From Alphaproteobacteria bacterium (lineage in GTDB: Bacteria; Pseudomonadota; Alphaproteobacteria; SMXP01), in assembly GCA_028285305.1 (NCBI GenBank), contig JANQPV010000004.1, forward strand, positions 152,605-216,604: DNA of 64,000 nucleotides, written 5' to 3'. Shown piece by piece: positions 10,541 to 40,992 of the stretch (position 1 is its first letter; every line of letters begins with the position of its first letter). The notes beneath the pieces were generated by a model, which was not told the origin of the DNA, ran no database searches, and was given only the letters and a program-made list of their open reading frames with translations. The translations under genes were made by a program, and so were the position numbers.

Positions 10541-10564
10541 TTTTCTTTTCATCAGGAGAGTATC

Positions 10565-10966: not shown

Positions 10967-11036
10967 AAGGGCTCATTGGCCAGACGCATGTGACAACCTA
11001 CCAGCCAAAAACGCGCCATAAAGGTTTTGGGTGGGA

Positions 11037-12787: not shown

Positions 12788-12958
12788 CCTGTTCTCCTCC
12801 GGCCGCCAAAAGCGGCGACCCTACACGGGATCACTAGAAAGCCAAAGGCTCTGGTAGTTTGCAGGATAACCGTTGCTTGAAGCGACCATTTCTTGCCAAG
12901 CCTTGCCAACCCCTGCGAGGCACCCTAGGCTTGCGCTCTCAGCAAGGGAGGAACGCTG

Positions 12959-14200: not shown

Positions 14201-14316
14201 GGGCCCGGCCAGAGCCAAGTACGCATTAGCGCAATGGCGTGGCGCTATCTCGAGTCTGAGCTCGGCCTCGTTGTCGCTCGGCCGCCCTTGCGCTACTATG
14301 TCTTTCGGGAAATGAG

Positions 14317-14841
14317 ATGCTGGGGGCGGCGAAAGAAGTGGTCTGGCGATTGGCATTGGCACTCTTGGCTTTAGGTGCGCTAACCATATCGCTTGCCTCG
14401 TTGGGGCGCACACTGATTGACGAGCATGCCGTTTTGTTGGCATCCGCCAAGAGTTGGCAGGGCTTTTGGTCGCAGTTCACCGCGGCTGATTGGCCCCGGG
14501 GCCTCATCCCCCCGACCCAGGCGCTCATCGATTTAGGCACGTTTGTCGCCGGCGCCATGATGTTGACGGCGTCTCTCTTTCGGCGGAATGAGTTTTTGGT
14601 CTCCGGCATTCTGTTTTTTGCAGCCGCCCTTCTCATCGGCTCTGAACCCGCAAGTCTCCACAACAACTACACAAGCTATCTTGTATTCGCGTACGAATTC
14701 GTGGCTGTATCGTTCATCGTGGTTTCCATCGCGCTGGCCTTTCTTCTTCGCGGCCCCCAGGCCAGTTTCTGGCCCTTTCTGACCCTCATCGCGCTTCTCG
14801 TTGCTGGGTGGCTCGTCTCTTCCTCAAACGCCGTTGCTTGA
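14317..14841 (+). CDS. Hypothetical membrane protein
   Basis: 174-aa ORF with 4-5 hydrophobic helices. It lies between two P450 genes, and its end overlaps only the unused upstream part of the next ORF-track frame. Weak support. Confidence 0.35.
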   Translation: MLGAAKEVVWRLALALLALGALTISLASLGRTLIDEHAVLLASAKSWQGFWSQFTAADWPRGLIPPTQALIDLGTFVAGAMMLTASLFRRNEFLVSGILFFAAALLIGSEPASLHNNYTSYLVFAYEFVAVSFIVVSIALAFLLRGPQASFWPFLTLIALLVAGWLVSSSNAVA

Positions 14842-14962
14842 GATCGATCACCGTGAGCGGAAAACATTGACTTCGGAGTTGATGACCAACCGCCCGCGCC
14901 GCTTGCCAGACCCGGTGATCGTTTCTATTCTCAGTCACAGCCCACCCAAAGGAGGCACCGCA

Positions 14963-16186
14963 ATGGCCGATTCTCCTGATGCTCCCAGCTTTTCCATGCT
15001 TGGCGTGTCAACCCTCGACCCCGAAACCCGCAAAGATCCCCACCCTAAGCTGGGCGCCATGCGTGAGGCGTGTCCGGCCTATTGGGATGCGGATACAAGG
15101 ACCTGGATGCTCACCCGCTATGAAGACGTCAAGACTTTCGCCAACGACCGCACCATGTTGCGTCATCCTTCGAATGCGGAGGAGGGGGCCTTGGTCCGCC
15201 AGAGTCTCAACGATGCGGAAGACGTGGCCCGCCGGCCCAGCATCCTGTTTATGGACGATCCCGACCATACCCGGGTGCGCCAACCCATTGCCAAAGCCTT
15301 CTACGCGCGCATTAATCATATGAAGGATCAAATCGAAGGGGTGATCGACGGAGTGCTAGACGGCGTCCCCAAAAGCGGGCGCTTTGATCTTATTGCGGAC
15401 CTTGCGATCCCAGTGCCTATTTTGGTCATTGCCCGGATCTTAGGGGTGGAACGCGAGCGCGTGGGCGAATTCCGAGAATGGTCGGAAGCCTCGATTCTCT
15501 CTCTTAATCCATTCCGCGGCGAGGACGAGACCAAGCGGATGCACTGGGGCCGCAACCAACTGAACGCTTATTTTACGGAAAGTTTGGAGAAGCGTCGCAA
15601 GGAGCCCCAAGACGATCTGATCACGGATATGGCTGAGGCGCTGGCGAGCGGCTTGGATCTGACGGAAGAAGAGGTGCTGATCAATCTCCAGGGCCTGCTT
15701 GTCGGCGGCAACTTAACGACAACGGATCTCATCGGCAACGGCGTTTGGCTTCTCCTCTCAAATCCGACCGAACGCGCCAAGCTTAAGGCGGATCCGGGTC
15801 TTGCCGGTGCCACAGTAGAAGAAGTCTTGCGCTTTGAGTCCCCCGTTGCCGCAACCGCCCGCGTTTTACCGGACGAACGCGAAGTGGGCGGCTGTCCGAT
15901 GCAGGCCCGTCAATCGGTCTGGCTTTCTCTTCACTCGGCCAACCGCGACGCGGACCTCTTCGACGACCCGGACCAATTCAACATCACTCGGGAGCATGTG
16001 GCTCATGTGGCCTTCGGCGGCGGTACACACATTTGCATCGGCGCGCCGCTCGCCCGAATCGAAGCCCGCAAAGTCTTCGCCAGCCTCTTCGAGCGCTTTC
16101 CCAATATGAGGCTTGCGGAGCAAGAGATCACATGGCGGAACTTACCGTTCTTCCGCGGCGTGGAGGAACTCTGGGTGGAGGTCTAG
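14963..16186 (+). CDS. Cytochrome P450
   Basis: I-helix LLVGGNLTTTD, ExxR (EEVLRFESP), heme loop HVAFGGGTHICIGAPLA. ATG 14963 preceded by AAAGGAGG. Confidence 0.9.
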   Translation: MADSPDAPSFSMLGVSTLDPETRKDPHPKLGAMREACPAYWDADTRTWMLTRYEDVKTFANDRTMLRHPSNAEEGALVRQSLNDAEDVARRPSILFMDDPDHTRVRQPIAKAFYARINHMKDQIEGVIDGVLDGVPKSGRFDLIADLAIPVPILVIARILGVERERVGEFREWSEASILSLNPFRGEDETKRMHWGRNQLNAYFTESLEKRRKEPQDDLITDMAEALASGLDLTEEEVLINLQGLLVGGNLTTTDLIGNGVWLLLSNPTERAKLKADPGLAGATVEEVLRFESPVAATARVLPDEREVGGCPMQARQSVWLSLHSANRDADLFDDPDQFNITREHVAHVAFGGGTHICIGAPLARIEARKVFASLFERFPNMRLAEQEITWRNLPFFRGVEELWVEV

Positions 16187-16268: not shown

Positions 16269-17126
16269 TCAAGAAGCGGGACGAAACGCAGTCGTTTTGC
16301 CGAAAAAGAAGATCCCATATTGATCTGCCCGCATCCGACGGGGCTGAGCGCACGCTTCGGCGTCGTCCCTGTAGAGTGTCACCAGGGATTTCTTCGAAAG
16401 ATTTGTCGTATGCGCATAGGTTTGGTGGATCGTGAAGCCGGCGCATTGTGCGTTATCTCCGCATGCAGCTTTCGCTTCCGACCACGTGTATTGACCTTGG
16501 CTGAGTTTCGGACAATTTGGGATGGTGTAGTCCTTGCGCACAAAGTCCGCAGACGTATAAATAGGTTGATATTCGGCAGCGTACGCGTCCGCCGTCCAGC
16601 AAAAGAACTTATGCTCTTCCGAACATTGGGCGTGTTCATGGTGAGTGACGCCGCGCGCTCCGGTAGTCGCATTCTTCGGAATGATCGTATGCGCACACTT
16701 CCACGGACCGTTCCGGCTTTGCACAACGACGCTCGGCCGCGTGTGCCAATGACGATAGGCGGGACCTGGGGCGGCCGAATCGACACTCATCCATTGTCCA
16801 TAGGGCCGAAACTTCCCCGTCCACACGGACGTTTCGAGAGTGCTTTGCTTCGAGAGCATGGATTTAACGAGCCGGTCGGCGTGAATGCTATCCAACGCGA
16901 ACATCGCCGTCCCATACTGAGCCCGGCAATACGCATTCGCCTCAAGAAACGTTTTTCGCTTGTCGACGAAGACGAAGCTCTCTTCTTTAAGGGACGGAGG
17001 GGGCGGACCGGCCGCAGGATCGTGCGCGAACGCGCTCGACGTTAAGCACAAGGCCAGGATGCTCCCGGCGATGGTGCCCACTATTTTGCGCACGATCTTA
17101 GTTGCGTGTTGACCTAGCCGAACCAT
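16269..17126 (-). CDS. Secreted protein with C-type-lectin-like domain and Cys-rich PAN/Apple-like C-terminal domain
   Basis: Signal peptide MVRLGQHATKIVRKIVGTIAGSILALCLTSSAFA. The spacing of CTLD-like Cys and Trp residues fits (FLEANAYCRAQYGTAMFALDS...VWTG...WKCAHTI...AQCSEEHKFFCW). The tail reads CPKLSQGQYTWSEAKAACGDNAQCAGFTI. Fold assignment is by eye only. Confidence 0.5.
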   Translation of the reverse strand: MVRLGQHATKIVRKIVGTIAGSILALCLTSSAFAHDPAAGPPPPSLKEESFVFVDKRKTFLEANAYCRAQYGTAMFALDSIHADRLVKSMLSKQSTLETSVWTGKFRPYGQWMSVDSAAPGPAYRHWHTRPSVVVQSRNGPWKCAHTIIPKNATTGARGVTHHEHAQCSEEHKFFCWTADAYAAEYQPIYTSADFVRKDYTIPNCPKLSQGQYTWSEAKAACGDNAQCAGFTIHQTYAHTTNLSKKSLVTLYRDDAEACAQPRRMRADQYGIFFFGKTTAFRPAS

Positions 17127-17460
17127 TGTTCCCCTTTGGATCTCTTGTGTGGAGTGCGTCTGCGCCCATACCGGTCTTATTCGGAATACGCCCGGGCTGA
17201 CGTCACGGACCATAGCCTAGAATTTCCAGTCCACCAAAGAAAACAAAACGAAAAATAGTTCAAACACGGATGGGTTGAGGTGACGCGATCGGAACTCGCC
17301 TACTCGTGCTATGCAAGAGAGCGCCTGAGTTCGCCTGATTGACGCGGGTCGCGTCGCCTTCTGCGGCAAGGCAGCGGGTCTGCACCGGGCGATTGCAACA
17401 TCGGGGGCAGATGCTACTATCGCGGCAATACAAAAAGGGTAAAAAAACTGAGAGAATGCC

Positions 17461-19007: not shown

Positions 19008-19554
19008 GTGTCTTTTGGAATCTCTGTGTGGATTGATTGACAAGGCCTGCCTTCTCAGATGGTCCCAACTGTGAGGCGGACACGAGACGCTCTCGTGTGC
19101 CACTAAAGCAATTCCGCAGACGGGCCAGACCAAATAATCCGTTTCAACCTTGCCGGACAGATCGCAATACTAGCTTATCGGGCGCGATCTGACCATAAAC
19201 ATCTGTATAGGAATTGTCCAAGTATAGGGAAATCTCAGTATACCTACTCGCGCGGCGGTAAATTCAAATCTGACAACCGTGGCGCCCGGCACATGCGACG
19301 GCAGACGATAGCCCCTCATGCGGTGATGGGGAGCCAGCGAGCATTATAGGCGACTGGCGGCATTGAGTTAAAGGATGACTTCGGCTCGCCGTTGAGGCTT
19401 CAGAGCCGGGCGCGGTTGTAATTGAATGCTGCTTAAGTCGCTCCAACGCGCTAATGGGTCGAAAATGTGGTTTGTCGCTGCTATAAGACGCAAGGCGAGA
19501 TTCAGCGGTTTGCACAAAGCCATGGTGAACCGCAACTTCCGGGGGAATGGGAAC

Positions 19555-20103
19555 ATGGCGGAACAACGAGCACAACAACGTCAAGGGGGCGTCGACTACA
19601 GCATCGCTGTACGCACGGCCATTGCGAATTTAGCCTATGCGGCCATCGCGTCCTTCTTATTCTTGGCTGTATTCTCGGGTTTGGCAAATCTCTCTTTCAC
19701 GTTGATCAGCAATGTTTTCATCTGCCTCAATCTGGTGTTCAGCGCCGGTTTGGCCTTGGTCTTGATGTCGAACAGTGTCCGCGCCTTTCAATTTGGTCGG
19801 TTTGGACAGGCAGGCATTTTCCTTTTTTCCGTACTCGCCACGTTTTTGGGAACGATAGCGGCTCTCGCCGGCCACACGCTTTACGAACGCGTTTACATTG
19901 ATATGACCTCTGTGGAGGGCAGGTACATCGTTGGTGAGTACAGAGAGGCTCTCGCTCAGTTCCTTGTCGCGTCCGGCCCAACTGGAGAATCGGTCATTAA
20001 AATGGTGCAGGGCATTCAAGTGACGGAACTTATCGGCGCGGTTCTCGCGCCGATCCTGCTGAATCTGTTTTTAATCCCGTTTCGCACGCGCGGCGCCCGA
20101 TGA
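19555..20103 (+). CDS. Hypothetical membrane protein
   Basis: ORF-track frame trimmed to ATG 19555 (MAEQRAQQ...). About 5 hydrophobic helices, no family recognised. Confidence 0.45.
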   Translation: MAEQRAQQRQGGVDYSIAVRTAIANLAYAAIASFLFLAVFSGLANLSFTLISNVFICLNLVFSAGLALVLMSNSVRAFQFGRFGQAGIFLFSVLATFLGTIAALAGHTLYERVYIDMTSVEGRYIVGEYREALAQFLVASGPTGESVIKMVQGIQVTELIGAVLAPILLNLFLIPFRTRGAR

Positions 20104-20208
20104 GCGGTGGCTAGAAAGGACGTATACAGAAAGTCTTGTCGCAACAGACTGCGACCTTTGCCCGAAGGTGAACGCGGCGCGGTGGACGAGTGTATTCGCC
20201 AGCTAACC

Positions 20209-20320
20209 TCACCCCACCGTTTCATTCACACTCTTGTTCGGCATATCGAGAGCCCCCTCGAACGGTCCAAAGAGAAGAGTCTCGTTGGGGCTGGCAGGTA
20301 TCGTAAGGCGCTGATAGTTG
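20209..20320 (-). pseudogene. Orphan 3'-terminal fragment of a Rieske-oxygenase gene (echo of 23782-23873)
   Basis: Conceptual minus-strand translation ends ...NETLLFGPFEGALDMPNKSVNETVG-stop. The intact gene ends ...NEDLLFGRFEGALDTLNQCVNEMVG-stop. That is 18 of 25 residues identical with aligned stop codons. My hand nucleotide alignment gives 63/87 identities. Confidence 0.7.
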
Positions 20321-20324
20321 AGGG

Positions 20325-22442
20325 TTATTCGTTGCCGCGTGGCTTCAACGGATAGAATTGAACGAAATTAATAAGTGAGGCGAAACATCCTGAGCAGTTT
20401 CCGATGACAGAACTTCCCCCTGATTGGTGCGAGTCGGATGACTCGGTTTTTGAGATCGCAACACCAAACAATAGATTCCGCAAATGCTTCGCCGGCACGA
20501 AATTTTGGCCCATCGCACGCTGGTAGTATGCTAAAGCGCTTGCCTCCTCCTTCTGAATCGAACCAAACCCGAAATGATATAGGAGGCCCATCAAGGTCAG
20601 TGCGCCTGGATCGTTAGCCATGGATGCTTGTTGAAGCAGCCTTACAATTTCCTGTTCAACATCGTCCACATCGTCCACATCAACCCAGTACCTGGCATCC
20701 CCTAACCGCAAAAAATGCTCCAGGTAGAATGATGCCAATAGGGATTGGGCACGAGGGTTCCCATCGTGAGCGAGCACCTTCGTCTGCTGACTTATCAACA
20801 TGAGCGATTCACGAGTGAACGGGGCTCTTTCAGCGCCATGCAAATGGCCCAAATCAATGACGCTTCGGGCTTCTTTCAGCAATTGACTGCCCCAGTACGT
20901 GACCGAGCTATTGGGGCGGACGAGTCCGGGCAAGCCGATAGCAAAGGAATAATTTACCAAAGTCTGTGCACGTACATTGCCAGCATAGGCTCCGATGATC
21001 AGCAGGTCTTCTTTCCCCAGAGACCAAACCTGGAGATCACGCAAAACATCTTCCACCTGCTTATTGATCCATTCATAATCGCGGATGGAGTTTAAGTCTG
21101 ACATCAGTTCGCGAAGCTCGCTCATATTCCGCTTCGCATGGTCCAGGTCTTCGAAACGCGTAAGGGAATACATTCTAAAGTACAAGTCATCTGAAAGATA
21201 TCCAGTGGGAACAAAACCGAAGATGGTTTGATATTCAATCAGTGCACTAATATAGTCCAGGGTGACGAATTCGGTTGCGCTTGCTTCCATCAGCCCAAGG
21301 TCTCGCAACGCCAAGATTGTGGTGCCAATCTTTTCTTCTGATAAGTCTTCCAGAGAGCCGAAAACGAAACCCACAGCCGCCGCAGGATCTTCATTGACCA
21401 GGGGTTGGAAAGGCTTGCTAAACGCAATGTCGATGCGATCTACAAACTCAGCATTCACCCATGTGTCGGGCGGCAAGCTCGACTCCGCCGTGAGTTGAGC
21501 AAGCGCGCGAACCAGTCCGTCATCAAACACACCGTCCACCGGACCTTCGAAATAGCCCAAGGTTATCAGCTGTCCTTCTAGTCGGCTCACATAGCCCTCG
21601 ACAAACCTTCGAAGCCCGTCCAGAACAATACGGTAATAGACGATCCGGTTTTGGATGGCCTGTGGAGATCCTCTGCGGAGTTCCTCCATGTCGTCCTGAT
21701 GCAAAAAATCTAGGGCCGACCGGGTCGACAACTCTAACTTTTGAAGTGGTTGGTCTCGAAAATCAGAGTCTTCCGGACTCCAAGAGCCTACTTCTACCAG
21801 GTCATCCACGACAGTCTGAGACCTGGAAGCGAATCGGGCGTAATAAAATTCGCCTTCTGGAAAGAAGGAAAAAACATAGTCGCCGATGCAATTTGTGGCC
21901 CTTTGGACTTGATCGGAATCGGGAAAGTTTTTCAGATAGCGGATTGCTTGGAGCGCTCCCTGCTCCGAAAGTTCGTGACAGCCGTATTCCGTCCAGACTA
22001 ATTCATGAGTCTTGAGCAGGTTTTCTTGGGACTGAATTGCGATGTATCCAACCAACAGCAATGTTGTCAAAAGAAGGCCGGTGACAAGTCCCATAGGCGA
22101 GATATTAAGGTGCTCGCTAAACTCATCGACAGGGGAGACCGCTCTCTTGGTGATTGAGGCGACATAACCTGACATGTCATCATCCAAATCACTAAGCCTT
22201 AAAACCCTTCCGGAGATTGCTCTCAAAAAAAGTAAGGGTTTAAGGGCAATGGCGGTTGCTAGGTGCAAGAGAGCAAGTTGGACAATAAGCGGGGCAGCTT
22301 GGAATACGAAAATCCGCCCCATGTCCGTCGGAATAGCAAGCAAAGCGCCAATTAGTGCAACGATAGCGCCCGCTATTGCCGAAAGAATAACAGTATGCAG
22401 AACGATCCGTATAACGGAAGTCTTGCGATAATAAGAGATCAC
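20325..22442 (-). CDS. Membrane protein with two peptidoglycan-binding-like modules and C-terminal Sel1-like repeats (third gene of TIR operon)
   Basis: 705 aa. Three N-terminal hydrophobic helices. QLITLGYFEGPVDGVFDDGLVRALAQL and ILALRDLGLM...ALIEYQTIFGFVPTGYLSDDLYFRM resemble PG_binding_1. Sel1-like repeats are present (GNPRAQSLLASFYLEH; NDPGALTLMGLLYHFGFGSIQKEEASALAYYQRA). The GTG start overlaps the upstream stop (GTGA). Confidence 0.65.
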   Translation of the reverse strand: MISYYRKTSVIRIVLHTVILSAIAGAIVALIGALLAIPTDMGRIFVFQAAPLIVQLALLHLATAIALKPLLFLRAISGRVLRLSDLDDDMSGYVASITKRAVSPVDEFSEHLNISPMGLVTGLLLTTLLLVGYIAIQSQENLLKTHELVWTEYGCHELSEQGALQAIRYLKNFPDSDQVQRATNCIGDYVFSFFPEGEFYYARFASRSQTVVDDLVEVGSWSPEDSDFRDQPLQKLELSTRSALDFLHQDDMEELRRGSPQAIQNRIVYYRIVLDGLRRFVEGYVSRLEGQLITLGYFEGPVDGVFDDGLVRALAQLTAESSLPPDTWVNAEFVDRIDIAFSKPFQPLVNEDPAAAVGFVFGSLEDLSEEKIGTTILALRDLGLMEASATEFVTLDYISALIEYQTIFGFVPTGYLSDDLYFRMYSLTRFEDLDHAKRNMSELRELMSDLNSIRDYEWINKQVEDVLRDLQVWSLGKEDLLIIGAYAGNVRAQTLVNYSFAIGLPGLVRPNSSVTYWGSQLLKEARSVIDLGHLHGAERAPFTRESLMLISQQTKVLAHDGNPRAQSLLASFYLEHFLRLGDARYWVDVDDVDDVEQEIVRLLQQASMANDPGALTLMGLLYHFGFGSIQKEEASALAYYQRAMGQNFVPAKHLRNLLFGVAISKTESSDSHQSGGSSVIGNCSGCFASLINFVQFYPLKPRGNE

Positions 22443-22681
22443 TTAAGGGTTTCCGATATACGGCGAAGGGCTTTCGAGATCGTACTGAACTCGGATAGGA
22501 TGGCGATTATGAACAAGCCAACAACGATAACGGAAAAACAAGCGACTCCTGCGCCGGCAAAACCCTCCAGGTTTTCGGGAAACAAATCCAGTCCGAGGGC
22601 AAACTGAATGAAAACAAAACACCAAAATAGAACATAGAGTATGATGGCTCTGATAGCGATTTGGGAGTAGTCAATCTTCAT
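22439..22681 (-). CDS. 80-aa two-TM protein (second gene of TIR operon)
   Basis: Two hydrophobic helices (AIILYVLFWCFVFIQFALGL; VACFSVIVVGLFIIAIL). Its ATG overlaps the TIR gene stop (ATGA at 22678-22681), and its own stop overlaps the next gene's start. Confidence 0.55.
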   Translation of the reverse strand: MKIDYSQIAIRAIILYVLFWCFVFIQFALGLDLFPENLEGFAGAGVACFSVIVVGLFIIAILSEFSTISKALRRISETLK

Positions 22682-23361
22682 TGCTTTGCCTTTTGATCAT
22701 TCTGGCGAGAAAAAAACAATCTGCCAACGGAGTATATTCTCCAAAAGATAACCAGAGTCAGAGCGGTCATTGCGCCCACAACCAGCTGACTTTCGGAAAT
22801 CAAGGGAGAGCCGCCCTCTCCGGGAGATCCAGTCATGTCTAAGGCATCTCGAATGATTTGCGAGGTGTCACTTCCCGCAGCGACCGCAATTCCCACCAGA
22901 AGGAACAAACTCAAGGAAATGACCGCCGATTCAAAGAAGAGGCGCTCAAAAATCGAGTGTGATCGCTGAGTTCGTTCGACAGGGACATCTATTTTCTGAA
23001 TGAAGTGTCCCAGTGCGGAGCTCAGACCCTCCCAATCCCCCCACCTTAACGCGTTAAGACTGCGAAACCCCAATGGGAGATCGTTTGGCGACAGATCTTT
23101 GGCCAGGACCTGAATCAATTTCTCGTTTTCCATCGCCAGCTCGGCTTCGTCGCGTACAAAAGAGCTTTGGATGGAGCTGGAAGTCCAAATTACAATCGCT
23201 GCTTTCGACTGATTCAGTTGAGCTGCAATTTCATCTCGAAAATCCCGAGGCCCGATGTGGTCATCCCACCAGACAGTGAGCCCGGCCCGTTCTAAGAAAG
23301 CGACAAGTTGTTGCAAATAGATTTGATCAGAACGCGTGTAGCTTACAAATACATCTGCCAC
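22678..23361 (-). CDS. TIR-domain protein with C-terminal double TM anchor (first gene of operon)
   Basis: DVFVSYTRSDQIYLQQLVAFLERAGLTVWWDDHIGPRDFRDEIAAQLNQSKAAIVIWTSSSIQSSFVRDEAELAME follows the bacterial TIR_2 pattern, including a Glu at the usual catalytic position. Two C-terminal helices (AVISLSLFLLVGIAVAAG; LVVGAMTALTLVIFWRIY). The likely start is GTG 23361 (GAGGG 4 nt upstream). The ORF-track start is TTG 23382. Confidence 0.8.
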   Translation of the reverse strand: MADVFVSYTRSDQIYLQQLVAFLERAGLTVWWDDHIGPRDFRDEIAAQLNQSKAAIVIWTSSSIQSSFVRDEAELAMENEKLIQVLAKDLSPNDLPLGFRSLNALRWGDWEGLSSALGHFIQKIDVPVERTQRSHSIFERLFFESAVISLSLFLLVGIAVAAGSDTSQIIRDALDMTGSPGEGGSPLISESQLVVGAMTALTLVIFWRIYSVGRLFFSRQNDQKAKQ

Positions 23362-23781
23362 TTTACCCTCTTTGGGAACCAATCAATCTTGGATTCTTCG
23401 ATGACGCTTTTACCCTATTTCACAATTCAGTGCGTTAGAAGGGTGCCTGGGTCGAGGGATTCTCATCTCCAATTAAGTGATCAAATTGCAAGTTCTAATA
23501 GAAGCCGGCAAAGCTCAACACTTGATGTGAATTGGCGAGTAAAATGCGAAAACAATATGGTTTCGGTGCAACATCCTCCCATTGAGCGCTTTGGGCCGAA
23601 AAATGGGGCACCTCGCTTGGTGGGAAAGGAGATGCTCGAAGTCTTCTTCCGAACCGCTTCAGCTGGAAAATAGCACGCAAACCGTGACGCTCGACTTGCA
23701 AGCTTGGTTTTGGCATCCCGAAATAAGGGAATCAGACTCTCTCGTTTCTCTCTCAAACTGCTGCTGCGCGAGCCAACCCAT

Positions 23782-24924
23782 TCACCCCACCATCTCATTC
23801 ACACATTGGTTGAGCGTATCGAGCGCCCCTTCAAATCGGCCGAAAAGGAGGTCCTCATTGGCGCCGGACGTCAGGCCTGATTGAATGGACTCACCGATCT
23901 CGAAATCTTCCCGAAGCGTATTCATGGTAATCCGATGATTGCGTTTCCAGTGAGTGTCGTCTTTACCCTCCGCCAGCGGACCATCTGTCGGCACCAGCGT
24001 CGCGAGCCGCAATTGTGTTTCGCCCGGCTCAATGGGTTCAATGGCAATCATGATCAGATGATCTTGCTGCACCAGCATCTGGAACGTCGGAAAGAGCGTG
24101 TAGATCACATTCGCCCGGTCGAGCAGCCGCCAGTCCGCTTGCGGCATCTCCTTGAAGCCCGCCATGCTGGACCGCGGCAGGACCGAGCGCAGATGCGGCC
24201 CGAACTCTTGATAGCTCGAGAGATTGTCCTCGAAGTGGGGGCCGATGGTCGCCCGGTGCGCGATCTTGAAGTGATAGGCCTCAATTCCCCCCTCCATCAG
24301 GATCTTCCAGTTGGCCTTGCAGAGGAGGGTGTCTTCGGCGGCAATCTTCATACGGTCGATCTGGAGTGCCGCGATCTCCGGCCCGAGGCCCTCTAGATAG
24401 GTGTCCAAGTCCGTCGGCGTCTCTGCGTCCGCTTCTACCCAAATGAAGCCAAAGCGCTCCTGGCACGCCAGTTCCTTTAGATTCAAAGACGACTTATCCA
24501 GATCGGGAAACCCCTCCGCCAGATGGGGCGCTGCTAAGAGCCGACCGTCGCTGCCGTAGGTCCAGGCGTGATAGGGGCAGGAAAACCGGTGGGCGCATCC
24601 AGATGCGTCGTCGACCAGCCGGGTCCCTCGGTGCCGGCACACATTGAGGAATGCGTGTACGGCGCCGTCCTTGTCTCGGGTGAGAAGAAGAGGCTGGCCC
24701 GCAAAGTCCTTGCGCACGAAGTCACCCGGCTCCGCCAACTCACTCGCATGACACATAATTTTCGGTAGCTTACGGAAGATCTTGTCCCGCTCTTCGGCGA
24801 AGCGCTCCTCGCTGGTATAGTGCCATGTGGGATTGCGCGTCACCGCGTCATCGAGATAGGCCGAGCCGGCCGCTTTCAAACCCAGAAGTTCTTCGATCAG
24901 TCCAATTTCCGTTTGTTTGTCCAT
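23782..24924 (-). CDS. Rieske [2Fe-2S] aromatic-ring-hydroxylating oxygenase, alpha subunit
   Basis: CRHRGTRLV...CPYHAW Rieske motif, plus the catalytic-domain His pair EAYHFKIAH. Confidence 0.9.
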   Translation of the reverse strand: MDKQTEIGLIEELLGLKAAGSAYLDDAVTRNPTWHYTSEERFAEERDKIFRKLPKIMCHASELAEPGDFVRKDFAGQPLLLTRDKDGAVHAFLNVCRHRGTRLVDDASGCAHRFSCPYHAWTYGSDGRLLAAPHLAEGFPDLDKSSLNLKELACQERFGFIWVEADAETPTDLDTYLEGLGPEIAALQIDRMKIAAEDTLLCKANWKILMEGGIEAYHFKIAHRATIGPHFEDNLSSYQEFGPHLRSVLPRSSMAGFKEMPQADWRLLDRANVIYTLFPTFQMLVQQDHLIMIAIEPIEPGETQLRLATLVPTDGPLAEGKDDTHWKRNHRITMNTLREDFEIGESIQSGLTSGANEDLLFGRFEGALDTLNQCVNEMVG

Positions 24925-24935: not shown

Positions 24936-25820
24936 TCAGCCGAGTTCGCTGCGCTTGCGCGGATGTTCGGCCACGGGCGCCTGACTATAATCGTTGAACG
25001 GACCGTCCCGCTTGATCACCGCCGCCTTCACGCCTTCGCTTGCGGCCAGCCGCACAAAGTCGCGGCCTTCCGGCGTATTGCGCATAATCCCGTCGAGGAT
25101 GGGACCCAGAGTTTGCGTACTTTGGAGCCCCATATTGTCATAGGTCTGATTAACGATAAGCTTCATGGACGTGAGTTGGGTGAGCGGTATGCTTGCCAAT
25201 TTCTCCGCCTCCGTCTGCACGCGGGCGTCCAGATCCTCCAAGGGGACGGCGAAGTTGATGAGCTCGATGTCGGCGGCTTCTTTGCCGCTCACCCATTCCC
25301 CGGTCAGCGCGTAGTATTTCGCTTTGGCAAGGCCAAGCCGGTAAACCCACATGCCGGTCAGGTGACAGCCCCAGACCCGGGAGTAGGGGGTGCCAAGCCG
25401 CGCGTCTTCAGACGCGATGACAATATCCCCGCACAGCGCCAGTTCCGAGCCGCCACCCACGCAATAGCCATGCACTTTAGTGATGACGGGCTTGAGCCCG
25501 CGCCACAATCCCATGAACACGTTAATGTAAGAGGTATACGGATTAGCTACGCCATAGACGTCCATGCCGGGGTCGTAGCCTTCTTCTTTGATGTTGCCGT
25601 AATGCTCGAGACCGTCGGAGAAGTCGAACCCGCCGCAGAAGCTGTCACCGGCGCCTTCCAGAATGATAACTTTGATCTCTTTGTCCCGGTTGGCGTCCCG
25701 GAGCGCCGCATCCAGTCCCTGAATGACTTCATACCTCAGCGTGTTGTACTTCTCAGGACGGTTCAGCGTGATGGTGGCGATGGCGCCCTCTTTTGCGTAT
25801 TTCACTTCGGTCTCGGTCAT
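24936..25820 (-). CDS. Enoyl-CoA hydratase/isomerase (crotonase) family protein
   Basis: ITLNRPEKYN, GAGDSFCGGFDF oxyanion-hole region. Trimmed to ATG 25818-25820. Lies 11 nt upstream of the Rieske gene, so they probably form an operon. Confidence 0.85.
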   Translation of the reverse strand: MTETEVKYAKEGAIATITLNRPEKYNTLRYEVIQGLDAALRDANRDKEIKVIILEGAGDSFCGGFDFSDGLEHYGNIKEEGYDPGMDVYGVANPYTSYINVFMGLWRGLKPVITKVHGYCVGGGSELALCGDIVIASEDARLGTPYSRVWGCHLTGMWVYRLGLAKAKYYALTGEWVSGKEAADIELINFAVPLEDLDARVQTEAEKLASIPLTQLTSMKLIVNQTYDNMGLQSTQTLGPILDGIMRNTPEGRDFVRLAASEGVKAAVIKRDGPFNDYSQAPVAEHPRKRSELG

Positions 25821-25860
25821 GGCCTGTTCCTCCAATTGGTTGACACTGGTCTCGATACGT

Positions 25861-25900
25861 CTTACCGATTGGTAAGACTGTATACTTACCGATCGGTAAG
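25861..25900. promoter_or_regulatory. Two tandem 16-bp palindromes CTTACCGAT(T/C)GGTAAG, candidate TetR operators
   Basis: 25861-25876 and 25885-25900, separated by ACTGTATA. They lie in the 106-bp divergent region between the crotonase-Rieske operon and the TetR gene. Confidence 0.6.
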
Positions 25901-25926
25901 GTGTCAACAGACAAAGGGACCTGACA

Positions 25927-26529
25927 TTGAGCGAAACCCGGGAACAGTTTTTGGATGCCGCCGAAGCGCTATTCGCCGACAAGGGCTTTTACGGGGTCAG
26001 CATTGCTAACATCGCCGACGAGCTCGGCCTGACGAAGCAGGCGCTTCTCCACCACTTTACCAGCAAAGAAAAGCTCTACGGCGAGGTGCTCAAGCGGATC
26101 TCGGACCATTTTGACCAGTTGGTCGACGAGGCGCGCGCTTCGGCCGCGGAACCGGCGGATCAACTCAAACGTTTTCTCTTGAGTTTATGCGCCCGTCCGC
26201 CGGGCGACACCGCCGGCACACGCTTACTCATGCGCGAGCTTTTGGATAATAAACGCCGCGCCGATACGGCGGGAACGTGGTATTTGAAGCCTTTCTTGGA
26301 GGCACTCACCGACATGGTCAAAGCCGTACCGGGCTGGGAGCGGGCGTCACCGGCCGAGGCTTTAGCCCTTGGCTATCAGTTGTTGGGAGCGATCACCTAC
26401 TTTGCGGTTTCGGGCCCGACGCTTAAGGGTATCTATGGCGCCAGCGACTATGAGGCGCTGGCGGAGGCGTTTCCTGACCAGTTGCAATACGTCATTGATG
26501 CGGCCCTTACCAGCCCTCGATCGAGATAA
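25927..26529 (+). CDS. TetR-family transcriptional regulator
   Basis: TetR HTH (FLDAAEALFADKGFYGVSIANIADELGLTKQALLHHF). TTG start. Confidence 0.85.
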   Translation: MSETREQFLDAAEALFADKGFYGVSIANIADELGLTKQALLHHFTSKEKLYGEVLKRISDHFDQLVDEARASAAEPADQLKRFLLSLCARPPGDTAGTRLLMRELLDNKRRADTAGTWYLKPFLEALTDMVKAVPGWERASPAEALALGYQLLGAITYFAVSGPTLKGIYGASDYEALAEAFPDQLQYVIDAALTSPRSR

Positions 26530-26627
26530 AGCCAGCCGCTTTAGGGCCTAATAAGGGGTCAGAACTCTTTACGCGCAAAAAATGCTGCCCTAGAGTGAAG
26601 GCGAGTCGGCTCACCAGGAATTACCCC

Positions 26628-27323
26628 ATGCCGCGCAAGCCTCGTTTCTTTATCCCAGGTATCCCGCTCCAAGTGGTCCAGCGGGGGCACAATCGCGCTC
26701 AAGTCTTCTTCGAGGACGAGGAGTACGAGACCTATCTTGCCTTCCTGGCCGAGGCGACCGAACGGTACGGCTGCGCCGTTCATGCTTATGTCTTGATGCC
26801 CCATCACATTCACCTCTTGGTGACGGCGCGCAAAGAGGGGGCGGTGAGCCGCATGATGCAGCATGTTGGATTGAAGTTCGTGCCTTACATAAACCGTGTG
26901 CGGGAAACGAGCGGAACCTTGTGGGAAGGCCGCTATCGCTCAAGTCTCGTGGACGATGCTTATCTTTTGAGCTGCATGCAGTACATCGAACTTGATCCCG
27001 TCCGGTCAAAAGTCGTGCGTACACCCACACAGTACAAATGGTCGAGTTACAGGGCCAATGCCCAAGGCCGCTCGGATCCTTTGGTAACGCCCCATGTAAT
27101 TTACGAGGGGCTGGGCCGCTCCGCGCCCGCGCGCCGGACCGCCTACAGAGCCCGCTTAAGAGACCGCCTAACGCCCGCGCAGCTCGACGAAATCACCGCT
27201 GCTTGGCAGACTGGAACGCCGCTGGGAGCTAGGAGTTTTCTGGACAAGGTCGAGCGCAAGCTCAAGCAAAAGGTGGGCTATGCCAAGCGCGGCCGTCCGC
27301 CGAAACGGACTGAAGTTCAATAA
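26628..27323 (+). mobile_element. REP-associated tyrosine transposase (RAYT; IS200/IS605-like Y1 transposase)
   Basis: HUH motif (MPHHIHLLV), catalytic-Tyr region LLSCMQYIELDPVRSKVV, and YKWSSYRAN, all typical of RAYT proteins. ATG 26628. Confidence 0.8.
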
Positions 27324-35668: not shown

Positions 35669-36061
35669 ACAGCGGAGGGACGGCGTTCCGCTGTGCGTGC
35701 GGGCATCTGATTTGATATCCCATCCTTTTTGCTTGCCTGTTAGCGGCTTCTGCGGATCCGTGTTTGGTCTTTCGGGTGAAGCGCATTTGGTGATCAACAG
35801 ACATGGGAGATCCAATGGTGGCAACGTAGACGGACGTTTGGCTTATCTAGGCGAAGGCTTCAGCAGAACAAGCCATCACTTTTTTCCGTCTTGTCGTTAT
35901 TCGTCAACGCACATTGCCAATGAGGTGTGCCTCGTTCCGTGTTGGGCCGAATTCGCATGACAATCCGCGCAGATATGCTGAACACAAACTGAAGCAGCTG
36001 CATTGCGGCCAAAAACTTCTGACCTATCACCGCGGTCAGTGAAAAACACGCCGCTACCCCC

Positions 36062-36230
36062 TTACGAATTAAACTTGCTGAGGTCCGGGTTCTTGGCGTA
36101 GGCCGCCCACAACGTCCCGCATATGGGCTTCGTCCGCGCCTCCGGCGGTCATCTCTGTGAGTGATCGCCTCTGCACTGTTTGAAGACGATTTGCCCGATA
36201 AGATCGATCTCGCGTCCATGCCTGTATCAT
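36062..36230 (-). pseudogene. Degraded 3'-terminal fragment of hslU
   Basis: Minus-strand frames read ...ANRLQTVQRRSLTEMTAGGADEAHMRDVVGGL and then, after a 1-nt frameshift, AKNPDLSKFNS-stop. The intact HslU reads ...[17 protein letters not shown]...[25 protein letters not shown]-stop. At nucleotide level AAACTTGCTGAGGTCCGGGTTCTTGGC aligns with AAACTTGCTCAGATCCGCGTTCTTGGC at 39693-39719. Confidence 0.75.
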
Positions 36231-36608
36231 TATAGGGTCTGACCCCTCTATAAGCCATCTGCGTATCCCGACCTGCGCGCCGCGGGCGGAGAGATGGTTC
36301 AACCCCCTCCGATATGTTCTGCCAAACCTTTCTTGATTTTCGATTGGAAAATCCTATCGGCCGGTCCCTCACCTAAGACTTCTCGTAAAGGAGCTCGAAT
36401 GCTAGCGAGTGTACTACTACAAAGCGATAGTCTGATAAGCAAAACCCCGTTGGAGACTCGCGCGGAACAGGACCCTCGTTGAACATCGGCTGAAGCGCTT
36501 CGTGAATTTCGGGCTGGTCGATTGGTCGCCGCCACACAACAGCTCGCACCAAGAATGCGAGCAAGAAAAGAACACAACATAAGAAAACGAGGAGGGAGGG
36601 CGTGGCCC

Positions 36609-38054
36609 ATGGAGGAGGATCCGAAACTTGGTGCGGGAGCGAACGCCGCCACCGCTGGAGGCGTGAACACAACTCCTAAGGAATCCGCCGCCCAGGCGGT
36701 CGGTGCCACCACCGGTGCAGCGCAGTCCACGCAAAAGCTCGACGCCTCAGGAGCAGCGGCCGCTTATCCCAGCCATACCAGTTTGTTCGGGTTTCGTGTC
36801 ACTTACCGCGCCTATGTGCTCTTCCTGCTGACAGCGGTCTACCTTATCAATTTCGTCGACCGGCAGATCATTTCGATCCTGCTGCCGTTTATTAAGGAGG
36901 AGTTTCAGGTCAGCGACACCTGGCTTGGCCTCTTAAGCGGCTTGGCGTTCGGTCTCTTCTACGCCACCCTTGGCATTCCTATCGCCCGCCTTGCCGACCG
37001 GCACAGCCGCAAACACATCATCTCGGCCTCTCTCGCCCTGTTTTCGTTTATGACGGTGGTATGCGGAATGGCCACGCAGTTTTGGCATCTGTTCCTGGCG
37101 CGCATGGGCGTGGGCGTCGGCGAAGCGGGAACAAGCCCGCCGTCCCATTCCATCATCGCGGATCTCTACAAACCGGAGGAGCGCGCGACGGCCATGGGCA
37201 TCTTTGCCCTGGGCGTGCCCCTTGGCATTATGGTCGGGTTCTTTGCGGGCGGCCAAATCGCGGCGGCCTTCGACTGGCGCGTCGCGTTCATCGCGGCCGG
37301 CCTGCCCGGCTTGGTGCTTGCCGTCATTGTTCATTTCAGCTTGAAAGATCCGCCCCGCGGCTTTGCAGACAACCGCCACCACGAAACACCGGAGCAACCA
37401 CCTCTCGGTGAAGTCGTGCGCATTCTCATTTCAAGGGGCGCTTTTGTCCATATTTGCTTTGGCTCGGCCCTCAGCGCCCTCGTTGGCTATGGCGTCGCCC
37501 AGTGGGTGCCCTCATATCTCGTCCGGACCCATCAGATGGACATCGGCACGGTCGGGCTTGTCCTTGCCTTGATCTTCGGTGTGTGCGGGGGAATTGGGAC
37601 GTTCTTCGGCGGATATCTCGCTGACCGCCTGGCGCGCCGGGATGTCCGTTGGACCATGTGGCTGCCGGCTTTAGGGGTGACGATCTCGACGCCCTTCGCG
37701 CTCTTCTTCTATCTCTCCGACTCGGTCGTCATCGGCATCCTTGCGTTCTTGCTGCCGGCGACGTTAGGCGCGATCTTCTTAGCGCCGGCGCTGTCCATCT
37801 GCCAGTCCCTTGTCCCGACGGCCATGCGGGCCACCACGTCGGCGGTGTTTTTGTTCATCACCAACATCGTCGGTCTGGGCCTTGGACCGCTCGCGATCGG
37901 TATGCTGAGCGATATGCTGCTGCCGGCGGCGGGCGACGCAAGTACGGCGCTGCGCTGGTCGCTGGCGCTCGTCTCCCTGATCGGACTTTGGGCCGCCCTT
38001 CATATGTACTTGGCCTCGCGCTCGTTGAGGGACGATTTGGCCAAGGCGGAGTGA
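36609..38054 (+). CDS. MFS transporter (Spinster-like), paralogue of 43286-44650
   Basis: FVDRQIISILLPFIKEEF, IARLADRHSRK and FLARMGVGVGEAG motifs are shared with the second copy. The start is uncertain (ATG 36609 or the ORF-track start at 36522). Confidence 0.8.
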   Translation: MEEDPKLGAGANAATAGGVNTTPKESAAQAVGATTGAAQSTQKLDASGAAAAYPSHTSLFGFRVTYRAYVLFLLTAVYLINFVDRQIISILLPFIKEEFQVSDTWLGLLSGLAFGLFYATLGIPIARLADRHSRKHIISASLALFSFMTVVCGMATQFWHLFLARMGVGVGEAGTSPPSHSIIADLYKPEERATAMGIFALGVPLGIMVGFFAGGQIAAAFDWRVAFIAAGLPGLVLAVIVHFSLKDPPRGFADNRHHETPEQPPLGEVVRILISRGAFVHICFGSALSALVGYGVAQWVPSYLVRTHQMDIGTVGLVLALIFGVCGGIGTFFGGYLADRLARRDVRWTMWLPALGVTISTPFALFFYLSDSVVIGILAFLLPATLGAIFLAPALSICQSLVPTAMRATTSAVFLFITNIVGLGLGPLAIGMLSDMLLPAAGDASTALRWSLALVSLIGLWAALHMYLASRSLRDDLAKAE

Positions 38055-38132
38055 GTGCACTTCGGTGCAGAGCGCACTCACGCAATTCTAGTTCCGGGTG
38101 AAAGGGATCAGAGCCAATAAGGGCCTGAACCT

Positions 38133-38522
38133 TTAAGCCGCCGCTTGCAGCACCGGGCGGCTGTAAACGTCTTTCTCTGCAATACGACCATCGCGAAACG
38201 TATAGCGCTCCACGCCGATACGCTCGAAAGGCTCACCGCTCGCAATGTCCGTTCCGGTCACCCGGTAGGTCATGAAGGTCGCATCGGGGGCGTGGTGAAA
38301 AACAACGTCCTCGAACCGGACATCCTTTTGAAGGCCCCGCCGCTCCTCAAAAAACGCCGCCACTTGGTCACGCGACGTCATTTGCCGGGGCGTGTCGCCC
38401 ACCAAGATGGAGTAGGCGAAATCTTCCGTCACCACTTGGTACATGGCGTCCAGGTCCTGCTTAAAGAAAGCGCGGCCAAACGCCTTGAACAACGCATCGC
38501 GTTCTTCTGCGGTTGGGGTCAT
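38133..38522 (-). CDS. NTF2/SnoaL-like small protein
   Basis: 129 aa after trimming to ATG 38520-38522. The size and alternating pattern fit SnoaL-like folds (weak, by eye). Confidence 0.45.
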   Translation of the reverse strand: MTPTAEERDALFKAFGRAFFKQDLDAMYQVVTEDFAYSILVGDTPRQMTSRDQVAAFFEERRGLQKDVRFEDVVFHHAPDATFMTYRVTGTDIASGEPFERIGVERYTFRDGRIAEKDVYSRPVLQAAA

Positions 38523-38689
38523 GATTTCGGCTCCTTGGGTACGGTTTCTATTGGGTTTTATCAGGCAGGCGAAAAGTTGGAAAGCGATAGGAGATCTAAT
38601 CACAGGGTGAGTTTCGTTCAAAACGTACCGCCGGAACAGTGAGATGCTTTGACCCCTTACAAGGTCATAGGGACTATGCTTATACGTGG

Positions 38690-39520
38690 TTACGCGCCGG
38701 CAACCAAACCGAATGTCGTTTCATCGGTACCATCAGTACCAAAACCTTCCGTAAACTCAATATTTCCGAATCCGGCCTGCTTGAGTTCATTATGGATTTC
38801 GTCCCGCGAAAAATACGTCAACCAGTTGTAGACGTCCCATGTACGATCCTTTTCGATGATCGTGAAGCGATCGAGAGACACGGCTTCATCTTCATATCGG
38901 AACGTGTGCTGGAAAGCGAAATAGTCATGCGCAGACCAAAACCCGTTCATGAGATTTCGCTCAAAAGAGACCCCCTCGTCTACGTTCTTAAAAGCGCTCG
39001 TTGAATAAACGTCGAATATGAACGTTCCGCTGGGCGTCAGTGATTTAAGAATCTTGACCAACAGCGTTTGGCGTTGGGGGGGCGAGAGGGCACACAAGTC
39101 GCAATAGATCAGCGTGACCAAGTCCTGTTGTGCGGGGAGCGGGTCCTTAAGATAATCGGCGACTTGGTATGTCGGTCTGGCGTGTAACGGGGCCTGCGTT
39201 TTCGCATAGTCGATTGAGTTGCGCGAAAAGTCCAAACCATGGACGATTGCGCCACGCTGTGCATATCGGTTTGCGTAAAGTCCGGGGCCACACCCAAGAT
39301 CGCAAATGGATTTACCCTCCAATCCGAAGGACCGGTCGATCCAGTCAACGACGCGATCGACGGCTTCAACTGAACGAGACGCAAGCTCGGTATCTTGGCT
39401 CAAATGAGTTTCGAGCATCTGGTTTGCCAGATGTGGATCGGTCCAGAGGGTGTCAGCCGTGTAGACGGAAAAGATTTCGGGACGTTCAGCGAGTTTCGCT
39501 AATTCAGTGTACGTCGTCAT
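38690..39520 (-). CDS. Class I SAM-dependent methyltransferase
   Basis: Motif I ICDLGCGPGLYANRYAQRGAIVHGLDFS. Confidence 0.8.
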   Translation of the reverse strand: MTTYTELAKLAERPEIFSVYTADTLWTDPHLANQMLETHLSQDTELASRSVEAVDRVVDWIDRSFGLEGKSICDLGCGPGLYANRYAQRGAIVHGLDFSRNSIDYAKTQAPLHARPTYQVADYLKDPLPAQQDLVTLIYCDLCALSPPQRQTLLVKILKSLTPSGTFIFDVYSTSAFKNVDEGVSFERNLMNGFWSAHDYFAFQHTFRYEDEAVSLDRFTIIEKDRTWDVYNWLTYFSRDEIHNELKQAGFGNIEFTEGFGTDGTDETTFGLVAGA

Positions 39521-39684
39521 CGTCTAGGGACCAGAGAGTCTGTCTAACATTGGACCAAGCCGTTCGGACACGCAAGCACCCCTTTGGTCGATGCCGGACC
39601 TCCGCCCAATCAGCTCAAGCGAACTCTGAGAGAATTCACGGCGGGCAACTAAGTCCGTCACTACCTTGAAGGCAGGGAGCTGCC

Positions 39685-40992
39685 CTACAAAATAAACTTG
39701 CTCAGATCCGCGTTCTTGGCCAGATCGCCCACATTTTCCCGGACATAGGCTTCGTCGACGACTTGGGTTTCGCCGGGCCGGTCGGCGGCCGTGAAGCTCA
39801 CCTCGTCGAGGACCCGCTCAAGAACCGTCTGCAGGCGACGGGCACCGATATTTTCAACCGTCGCATTTACCTCCGCGGCAATGTCGGCGATCGCTTCGAT
39901 TCCCCCATCGGTGAACTCGAGAACAAAATCCTCCGTCTGCATCAAGGCCACATATTGCTTGATAAGGCTGGCCTCCGGTTCCGTCAGGATACGTTTGAAG
40001 TCTTCGCGGGTCAGCGCATCCAGCTCCACCCGGATGGGCAAACGCCCCTGCAGCTCCGGCAAGAGGTCTGACGGCTTGGCAATATGAAACGCGCCGGACG
40101 CGATGAAGAGAATATGGTCGGTTTTTACGGGGCCGTATTTGGTGCTCACTGTCGTCCCTTCGATCAGCGGCAACAGGTCCCGCTGGACGCCCTCCCGGCT
40201 GACATCGCCCCCCATCCGGTCCGACCGGGCCGTGATCTTGTCCACTTCGTCGAGAAACACGATGCCGTCGTTTTCCACCACGTTCATGGCCTCATGCACC
40301 ACTTGGTCTTCATCAAGAAGTTTATCGGACTCTTCCATAATCAGAACTTCGTAGGTCTCCTGCACCTTCATTTTCTTTTGCTTCATGCGCGGGCCCACGG
40401 CCTTACCGAACAAATCGTTGAGGTTCAGCATGCCCATCTGGGCGCCGGGCATGCCGGGGATCTCAAAGCTGGGCATCGCATTGCTGGTGTCGGCCACTTC
40501 GATGTCGACATAACTGTCGTCGAGCTCATTCCGCCGCAACCTTTGCCGAAACGTCTCACGCGTCGACGGACTGGCACCGGGTCCCACAAGCGCATCCAGC
40601 ACCCGCTCCTCGGCTTTCATATGGGCTTCGGCTTCCACTTCCTTGCGCTTGCGCTCACGCACAATGCCGATCCCGATCTCGACCAGGTCCCGAACGATTT
40701 GTTCCACATCCCGGCCCACATAGCCCACCTCGGTGAACTTCGTTGCTTCGACCTTGAGGAAGGGCGCTCCGGCCAGTTTCGCGAGCCGCCGCGAGATCTC
40801 GGTCTTGCCCACGCCCGTCGGCCCGATCATTAAGATGTTCTTGGGCAGGACTTCTTCTTTGAGCATTTCGTCCAGTTGCTGCCGCCGCCAGCGGTTACGC
40901 AGCGCAATGGCAACAGATCTCTTCGCGTCTTGTTGGCCGATAATGTAGCGGTCCAGTTCCGAAACGATTTCACGGGGTGAAAATGAAGACAT
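39685..40992 (-). CDS. hslU: ATP-dependent protease ATPase subunit HslU
   Basis: [15 protein letters not shown], Walker [12 protein letters not shown]-terminal DLSKFIL. Confidence 0.95.

Follow-up and report, generated by a model that had tools for sequence, protein, structure and literature searches.

The 3′ end of an intact Rieske oxygenase gene is present twice in the 64,000-nt stretch of an alphaproteobacterial contig that we analysed (JANQPV010000004.1, positions 152,605 to 216,604; hereafter, the window), and the two copies enclose a discrete low-GC block that carries a three-gene operon with a TIR-domain gene. One copy still ends the Rieske gene and the other lies orphaned on the far side of the operon. 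The repeat, the edges of the block and its deviant composition, the decay of the orphan to a pseudogene, the lack of recombinase genes in the sequences scanned and the recurrence of the same topology elsewhere are direct observations. Our favoured explanation, held with moderate confidence, is that the TIR cassette was added by homology-driven, recombinase-independent displacement of the gene tail (one-sided homologous plus illegitimate recombination, or a circular single crossover) and not as a self-integrating element. All coordinates are those of the window unless a different locus is named.

The repeated 3′ end of the Rieske gene

The following features define the repeat:
23782..24924, minus strand: intact gene for a Rieske ring-hydroxylating oxygenase alpha subunit, 380 aa (Pfam Rieske 1.2e-18, Ring_hydroxyl_A 2.1e-26)
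23767..23881, minus strand: repeat copy A, the live Rieske 3′ end, with ~33 codons, the stop and 15 nt downstream (alignments; GC 0.567, host-like)
20197..20318, minus strand: repeat copy B, the orphaned and decayed Rieske 3′ end, with ~35 codons, the stop and 12 nt downstream (alignments; family hidden Markov model, HMM; conserved columns)

A repeat search returned an 86-nt direct repeat (20209–20294 and 23782–23867) with 73% identity and a spacing of 3573 nt. A preliminary description of the window had pointed to a recurrence of the Rieske 3′ end in the 20209 region, and the alignment bears this out: the local alignment of 20150–20350 with 23730–23930 scores 43, far above 500 shuffled controls (8.9±1.2, maximum 15). 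In a sensitive self-BLAST of the whole window, the pair is one of six off-diagonal matches in 64 kb (E=1.5e-10). The tail peptides, NETLLFGPFEGALDMPNKSVNETVG and NEDLLFGRFEGALDTLNQCVNEMVG, each followed by a stop, are identical at 18 of 25 positions with their stops aligned, which agrees with the earlier count. The repetition of the Rieske 3′ end is therefore real, at the coordinates listed above.

The homology reaches beyond these 86 nt on both sides. Past the stops, where a similarity of about 12 nt had been described, it extends for 12–15 nt, a 3-nt indel included, and reaches 20197 and 23767. Upstream, it continues in codon register to ~20311–20318 and 23881 through in-frame indels of 3 and 6 nt (for example, CTT ACG against CTG ACG, both LT). 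Overall, the gapped homology joins 20197–~20318 to 23767–~23881. The orphan tail is ~120 nt long and starts 7–14 nt beyond the TAA (20325–20327) of the 705-aa gene that closes the operon.

Identity is not evenly spread along the tails. In the last 24 nt including the stop, 22 positions are identical (92%), compared with ~66% in the remainder. Exact matches between the copies do not exceed 10 nt, a length reached by two blocks near the stop. Both tails have a GC content of 0.567 and their values at third codon positions are 0.63 and 0.67, so that composition does not tell the native tail apart.

It is extremely improbable that the repeat is a chance similarity or an assembly chimera of two strains. 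The source is a metagenome assembly with no independent isolate genome, which would leave room for a chimera, but the alignment score stands ~28 standard deviations above the shuffles. The exact words common to the copies do not exceed 10 nt, which left a de Bruijn or overlap assembler nothing to mis-join on, and the orphan is a pseudogene (see below), not a functional allele of a second strain. Moreover, the assembly is supported by a Logan contig (run SRR20820731) that agrees with the window at every position over 12,259 nt and adds no variant.

A discrete low-GC block between the copies

The GC content of the whole window is 0.571. A maximum-likelihood two-breakpoint fit of GC content over 12–32 kb, made without knowledge of the repeat, delimited a deviant segment at 20312/20344–23759 (log-likelihood ratio 37), with a GC content of 0.489 inside and 0.570 outside. 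The edges of this segment land on the inner edges of the repeat. The block and the DNA downstream of it comprise:
23362..23766, minus strand: leader of the cassette, non-coding, low GC, part of the inserted block (GC change-point ~23759)
22678..23361, minus strand: TIR-domain protein with two C-terminal hydrophobic helices (Pfam TIR_2 3.9e-17; Kyte-Doolittle; start from gene call)
22439..22681, minus strand: 80-aa protein with two hydrophobic helices and a 4-nt overlap with each neighbouring gene (list of open reading frames, ORFs; Kyte-Doolittle)
20325..22442, minus strand: 705-aa orphan membrane protein with about three N-terminal hydrophobic helices, PG_binding_1 (285–335) and a weak Sel1-like repeat (614–643) (Pfam)
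20104..20196, no strand: presumed native intergenic DNA from the original Rieske stop to the convergent membrane-protein gene (outside the low-GC block; no significant fold)
19510..20103, plus strand: convergent multi-helix membrane-protein gene, the downstream neighbour, family not assigned (gene call; Kyte-Doolittle scan)

Because the GC edges match the repeat edges and the cargo has no relatives, a discrete foreign low-GC insertion made up of the three-gene operon and its ~400-nt leader is well supported. The same content had been assigned to 20300–23781 in the preliminary description. That assignment stands, to which the GC fit adds that the block is compositionally foreign, and its bounds can be refined to ~20319–23766 (~3.45 kb).

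The two ORFs that overlap the leader (23481–23798, minus strand, and 23308–23673, plus strand) gave no protein-family match, and Rfam gave no match in 15–30 kb, leader included. Neither the leader nor the DNA downstream of either Rieske-tail stop folds better than shuffled controls, and promoter and terminator scans stayed at background level. No terminal inverted repeats, repetitive extragenic palindromic (REP) elements or other repeats were found at the cargo ends. We also noticed a weak terminator-like hairpin at 23676–23700 (minus strand), ~85 nt past the Rieske stop and inside the low-GC leader. If it is functional, the terminator of the Rieske gene is supplied by the cassette. The protein of the downstream neighbour (19510..20103) matched no family in Pfam or in further family libraries.

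Decay of the orphaned tail

To compare the two tails with those of other Rieske genes, we anchored 119 homologues on the FG[RK][FY]E motif, which gave 29 tail columns, 14 of them conserved at ≥90%. The orphan departs from the family at 5 of these 14 columns (S to A, G to S, A to P, R to P and F to P). Real homologues depart at none (87 sequences), one (24) or two (8), and the live tail at one, where it has L for F, a variant also seen in 2 of the 119. Five of the 11 amino-acid differences between orphan and live copy fall in conserved columns, approximately the neutral share of 14/29.

The nucleotide mismatches are distributed over the three codon positions as 7/5/14. A ratio of third-position to first- or second-position mismatches of ~2:1 is expected if the orphan drifts everywhere and the live copy only synonymously. 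The same pattern is found for the tail pairs of two further loci described below, L159 (6/4/13) and L036 (2/2/6). Additionally, a C-terminal family HMM scores 28 bits on the orphan versus 78 bits on the live copy.

At the same time, the orphan is closest to the live copy (18 of 29 positions), the maximum for any of the 119 homologues being 17. The two have in common LLFG, VNExVG and the position of the stop, a combination present in none of the 119 homologue tails inspected. The orphan is thus a decayed pseudogene fragment from the Rieske gene's own close lineage.

This changes the meaning of the divergence between the copies, ~28% in the preliminary description, where it was taken as a sign of different lineages. 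Since decay has made the orphan a pseudogene (5 of 14 conserved columns violated against 0–2 in homologues, and mismatches of 7/5/14 that fit neutral decay), the 27% divergence is no proof of two lineages; it measures age, at ~0.2 substitutions per site, and does not necessarily reflect two origins. The Rieske homologues are all about equally distant, which makes a comparison of tail and body phylogenies uninformative.

An alternative that we considered is that a second, tandem Rieske paralogue, or a small local duplication of the tail, once existed and was mostly deleted or overwritten when the cassette arrived, so that only the orphan is left. The orphan's closeness to the live copy, the rare LLFG and VNExVG-stop features of both and their host-like GC content are what such an origin would leave. 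However, an endpoint just past the stop would be required here (homology ends at 12–15 nt) and again at hslU (2 nt; next section). Such an origin would also take two separate events at exactly the same point. Besides the tail orphans of L036 and L159, no tandem Rieske duplicate was noticed in ~170 related loci, for which hit lists were inspected and not systematically screened. We consider this origin improbable. A simple tandem duplication was rejected, as there is no second copy of any cargo sequence beyond the orphan.

A second displaced tail at hslU

An equivalent footprint was found in the same window at hslU:
39683..39763, minus strand: live hslU 3′ end, gene at 39685–40992 (Pfam AAA_2/AAA; hslV, Proteasome family, upstream; alignment)
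36060..36141, minus strand: orphaned hslU 3′ end, 63/82 identical (77%), with a frameshifting 1-nt indel and aligned stops
36142..39682, no strand: 3.54-kb stretch between the hslU tail copies (Pfam; GC mixed, 0.51–0.61)
38690–39520, minus strand: methyltransferase in this stretch (Pfam)
38133–38621, minus strand: SnoaL-like protein in this stretch (Pfam)
36522–38054, plus strand: MFS transporter in this stretch (Pfam)

The hslU tails align with a score of 42 (shuffles 10.2±1.3; self-BLAST E=1.5e-10) at a spacing of 3623 nt, and their homology ends 2 nt past the stop. The genes between the copies are metabolic and unrelated to the TIR cargo, Pfam revealed no recombinase among them, and no word of at least 8 nt is common to the Rieske and hslU repeat pairs. 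Of the other four off-diagonal self-BLAST matches, two are paralogue pairs and two are palindromes, which leaves the Rieske and hslU pairs as the only non-paralogue direct repeats in the window; both are gene tails.

With an equivalent tail orphan 3.6 kb away from hslU, the window shows that such a footprint is not peculiar to the TIR operon. This suggests ordinary recombination, and not a dedicated mobile element, as its source.

Two palindromes in the window (59373–59458 and 60099–60184) are near-perfect, ~86 nt long, with arms of 31–32 nt and 88–90% complementarity, and lie at both ends of a cyclophilin gene (59476–60243). They could be REP-like or terminator structures.

Displaced tails in other loci

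Tail orphans were also observed in three other loci. In L036, the tail of a distant Rieske homologue (tail at 11038–11165) is followed 1699 nt downstream by a tail orphan (12737–12870) that is ~88% identical over ~130 nt. The two are separated by 1.6 kb of cargo with two genes (for a 151-aa secreted protein and an outer-membrane protein) and no recombinase, and tRNA-Val (12971–13045) follows just after the orphan. The Rieske gene of this locus is seemingly frameshifted near 10950–10990, which may be a sequencing error.

In L159, a full Rieske gene and a tryptophan-dioxygenase-like (TDO-like) gene are followed by three tail fragments (10011–10640), a different gene and a full amidohydrolase gene. 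The first fragment (10011–10122) is 91% identical to the tail of the TDO-like gene, the second (10161–10502, 342 nt) is 95% identical to that of the amidohydrolase gene, and the third, a Rieske tail (10506–10640, 136 nt, 76%), begins three nt after the amidohydrolase fragment. L031 has no Rieske gene in this arrangement; here two convergent genes, A (13173–15605, plus strand) and B (19265–20902, minus strand), enclose fragments B′ (17100–17256) and A′ (17263–17369) that abut head to head. Both L031 and L159 have the order A-X-B′|A′-X′-B, in which the fragments sit between two different cassettes. An illegitimate end-join or a circularised donor fragment would give such joints, in which the tails of the two flanking genes are fused, whereas an att site or a site-specific recombinase would not.

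In general, the order of intact gene, new DNA, orphan 3′ fragment in the same orientation and original downstream DNA is found at the Rieske gene, at hslU and in L036. The footprint occurs at unrelated genes, with no common site and with cargoes that have no sequence in common. An element common to the cargoes of the window, L036, L159 and L031 was accordingly rejected. The four repeat pairs measured in the three loci are spaced 1.7–2.2 kb apart. The identical spacing of 1699 nt in L036 and L159 is treated as a coincidence, the two loci having no common sequence.

Recombinases and the case for an integrative element

Neither the three cargo proteins nor the two leader ORFs matched an integrase, excisionase, transposase or resolvase domain in Pfam, NCBIfam, PHROGs or PADLOC, and a Pfam scan of ~66 large ORFs of the window revealed no recombinase. 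These ORFs are core chromosomal or catabolic in character (SecB, MltA, hslVU, hisB, hisS, pgi, P450s, TauD and TetR regulators), with one RAYT-like Y1 gene among them. A tblastn search with IntE, the integrase of the e14 element, found no homologue in the window and 166 loci, at low sensitivity and with no systematic integrase HMM scan of the loci.

The Y1 (IS200-like) transposase gene, at 26595–27323, is closest to REP-associated tyrosine transposases and lies two genes upstream of the Rieske gene. In NCBIfam it scores 66 bits, short of the cut-off of 80. The vicinity of the cassette showed no REP-like repeats. Since there are no REP elements or other repeats at the cargo ends, this gene seems unrelated to the cassette.

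The preliminary description had ascribed the footprint to an element that integrates into the 3′ end of a gene. This part does not hold: no integrase or recombinase was found in the cargo or the ~66 window ORFs, exact runs are ≤10 nt, and the footprint is also present at hslU. What survives is the idea that a replacement 3′ end was supplied and the displaced original orphaned; the orphan is a displaced gene tail.

A weaker form of the same idea is that the cassette is the remnant of a site-specific integrative element, similar to e14 or phage 21 at icd or to a cis-mobilisable element (CIME) with a lost integrase, the tail copies being attL and attR. The topology is indeed identical to that of icd-e14-icdC in Escherichia coli K-12, CIMEs of 1.2–13 kb free of recombination genes have been described at the 3′ ends of protein-coding genes (PMC7563491), and the highest identity between the tails lies in the last 24 nt including the stop (22/24), which could be an att core. 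On the other hand, besides the missing integrase and excisionase, the longest exact run is 10 nt versus 29 nt in icd/icdC and identity is 73% versus ~93%. As no word of at least 8 nt links the hslU pair to the Rieske pair, one would have to assume two different integrases, both lost, and the double-fragment joints of L159 and L031 are not att-like. We regard such a remnant as unlikely.

A proposed displacement account of the footprint

In the displacement that we propose, the incoming DNA would have come from a relative whose own Rieske gene already had the cassette directly after it. At one end, this DNA would have paired with the resident Rieske gene, with a homologous crossover within or upstream of the gene. 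The other donor end, right past the stop of the 705-aa gene, would have been joined illegitimately to the resident gene at a point ~35 codons short of its stop. This step could alternatively have been homology-facilitated illegitimate recombination or the integration of a circularised fragment by a Campbell-type single crossover. The outcome would be the gene body, a new tail, the 3.45-kb cargo, the old tail and native downstream DNA. Relieved of selection, the old tail would have decayed by ~0.2 substitutions per site, with the live tail changing mostly at synonymous sites. The donor, the crossover positions and the DNA vehicle are the parts of this scheme that we infer.

Displacement would explain the missing recombinase, the recurrence at unrelated genes and the double-fragment joints. 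Across the Rieske and hslU pairs, homology ends 2–15 nt past the stop codon, which on this account is the point where the donor and resident genomes stop being alike. Published models invoke this same mechanism for strings of orphaned 3′ regions in type VI secretion system (T6SS) and Rhs loci (PMC5361080).

Several points weigh against this account. No donor, empty site or intermediate was observed. RecA-dependent pairing is inefficient at high divergence, which requires a donor with an identity well above 73% when the event took place. The illegitimate joint falls only 7–14 nt past the stop of the 705-aa gene, which is tidy for a random end. A recombination core might be suspected from the 92% identity in the last 24 nt, although such a value would arise by chance with a probability of ~0.1 once multiple windows are taken into account. 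Finally, homology-facilitated illegitimate recombination is rare in experiments (PMC5361080).

Cargo genes and their possible function

The TIR protein is 227 aa long from the called start (the longest ORF has 234 aa) and matches PF13676 at 63.3 bits (cut-off 28). Its PADLOC and NCBIfam matches are confined to the TIR domain and lie far under the family cut-offs, as in the case of ThcB4 in NCBIfam (17 bits versus 220). Homologues have only the domain in common, with identity of ≤47% and in unrelated contexts. Read by eye, the motif SSFVRDEAE holds a candidate catalytic glutamate.

The 80-aa protein had no family match at E≤0.01; its sole match, to a PHROG of unknown function (E=0.065), is at chance level. 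For the 705-aa protein, a word-indexed search of 5.8 billion clustered proteins returned no homologue, and an exhaustive HMMER search of 1.84 billion representatives returned no full-length relative, with domain or repeat matches only. The segments that match anything are PG_binding_1 (285–335) and the Sel1-like stretch (~590–660). Its single-sequence AlphaFold model is unusable (mean pLDDT 39.9). PADLOC reported nothing for the 80-aa and 705-aa proteins, and the cargo had no match in the plasmid collection.

All three cargo proteins have hydrophobic helices, one carries a TIR domain and one a peptidoglycan-binding domain. Plausibly, judging from these domains, the cargo is an envelope-linked TIR defence or stress module in which a membrane-anchored TIR protein works with two membrane partners, one of them peptidoglycan-binding.

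Relatives and the upstream neighbourhood

No Rieske homologue above 63% amino-acid identity was found in genome contigs, metagenome contigs or the 5.8 billion proteins. Relatives keep only the divergent TetR-Rieske pair, and the genes directly past their Rieske stop are unrelated to those of the window. In all the inspected relatives of 55–63% identity, the TetR and Rieske genes are directly adjacent and divergent. In the window, an enoyl-CoA hydratase gene (24936–25982) lies between them, 12 nt upstream of the Rieske start. Because it separates a pair that is adjacent in all inspected relatives, the Rieske locus has been remodelled on its upstream side too.

Significance and comparison with known systems

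Thanks to the orphan tail, a horizontally acquired TIR cassette without relatives in the databases searched can be delimited at base-pair level. The tail also indicates that a cassette of this type needs no mobile-element machinery of its own to enter a core chromosomal region. Displaced tails are readily detected by computation: the 64 kb analysed here contain two, and unrelated loci have more. Should they prove common, a search of whole genomes for such tails could map small gene gains that escape island-finders based on integrases or tRNAs, define their limits and give them an approximate age.

All six measured tail spacings (3573 and 3623 nt, and four at 1.7–2.2 kb) are below ~4 kb, and gene transfer agents of the RcGTA type package ~4 kb (PMC9662315). 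A link between the spacings and the capacity of such particles is speculative. A wider conjecture would be that this lineage, and perhaps Alphaproteobacteria generally, gains small cassettes, defence genes included, by recurrent recombinase-free tail displacement, with their size capped by the DNA vehicle; we consider it a long shot. If it were true, gene transfer agents would not only swap alleles but also bring in novel genes by one-ended recombination, and such events could be counted in a genome by its displaced gene tails.

The cargo resembles TIR antiphage systems (Thoeris ThsB, TIR-SAVED and TIR effectors) in the TIR_2 domain of its first gene. It differs from them in its partners, which are two membrane proteins without relatives; none of the typical partners of known TIR systems (ThsA, SIR2, SLOG, cyclase, Argonaute) is present in the cassette.

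In the case of e14 in E. coli K-12, the icd frame is kept by a tail at the edge of the insert, and the displaced icdC pseudogene, with its stop aligned, lies at the far end (PMC13626634). The Rieske gene, cassette and orphan have the same topology, which is also that of phage 21. However, e14 is 15.2 kb long and encodes IntE and XisE, whereas the cassette described here is 3.45 kb long and has no recombinase. In strain MG1655, we measured 165 coding nt in icd/icdC with ~93% identity, differences that are almost all synonymous and an exact run of 29 nt; the Rieske tails, in contrast, span ~115 nt with 73% identity, runs of ≤10 nt and an orphan broken at conserved residues. The window thus matches the topology of e14 but not its defining machinery.

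In streptococci, CIMEs of 1.2–13 kb lie at the 3′ ends of fda, rpsI and rpmG, bordered by repeats; they carry cargo but no recombination or transfer genes (PMC7563491). The cassette is likewise small, has no recombination, conjugation or mobilisation genes and is associated with a repeat at the 3′ end of a protein-coding gene. The difference is that CIMEs are known by intact att repeats and by cognate integrative and conjugative or integrative and mobilisable elements at the same site, and neither was noticed here, where cognate elements were sought by the low-sensitivity tblastn with IntE.

Since icd/e14 and the orphans of Rhs and T6SS loci already exemplify this kind of footprint, the Rieske case on its own is a modest advance. 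As in Rhs, contact-dependent inhibition and T6SS effector loci, a new 3′ sequence and cargo follow a conserved 5′ part, with the old 3′ end orphaned downstream. Those loci encode polymorphic toxins, in which the new tail is a different toxin and the orphans are reusable. Here, by contrast, the gene is a metabolic oxygenase (and, in the second case, hslU), its new tail has the same function as the old one, and the cargo is unrelated to the gene.

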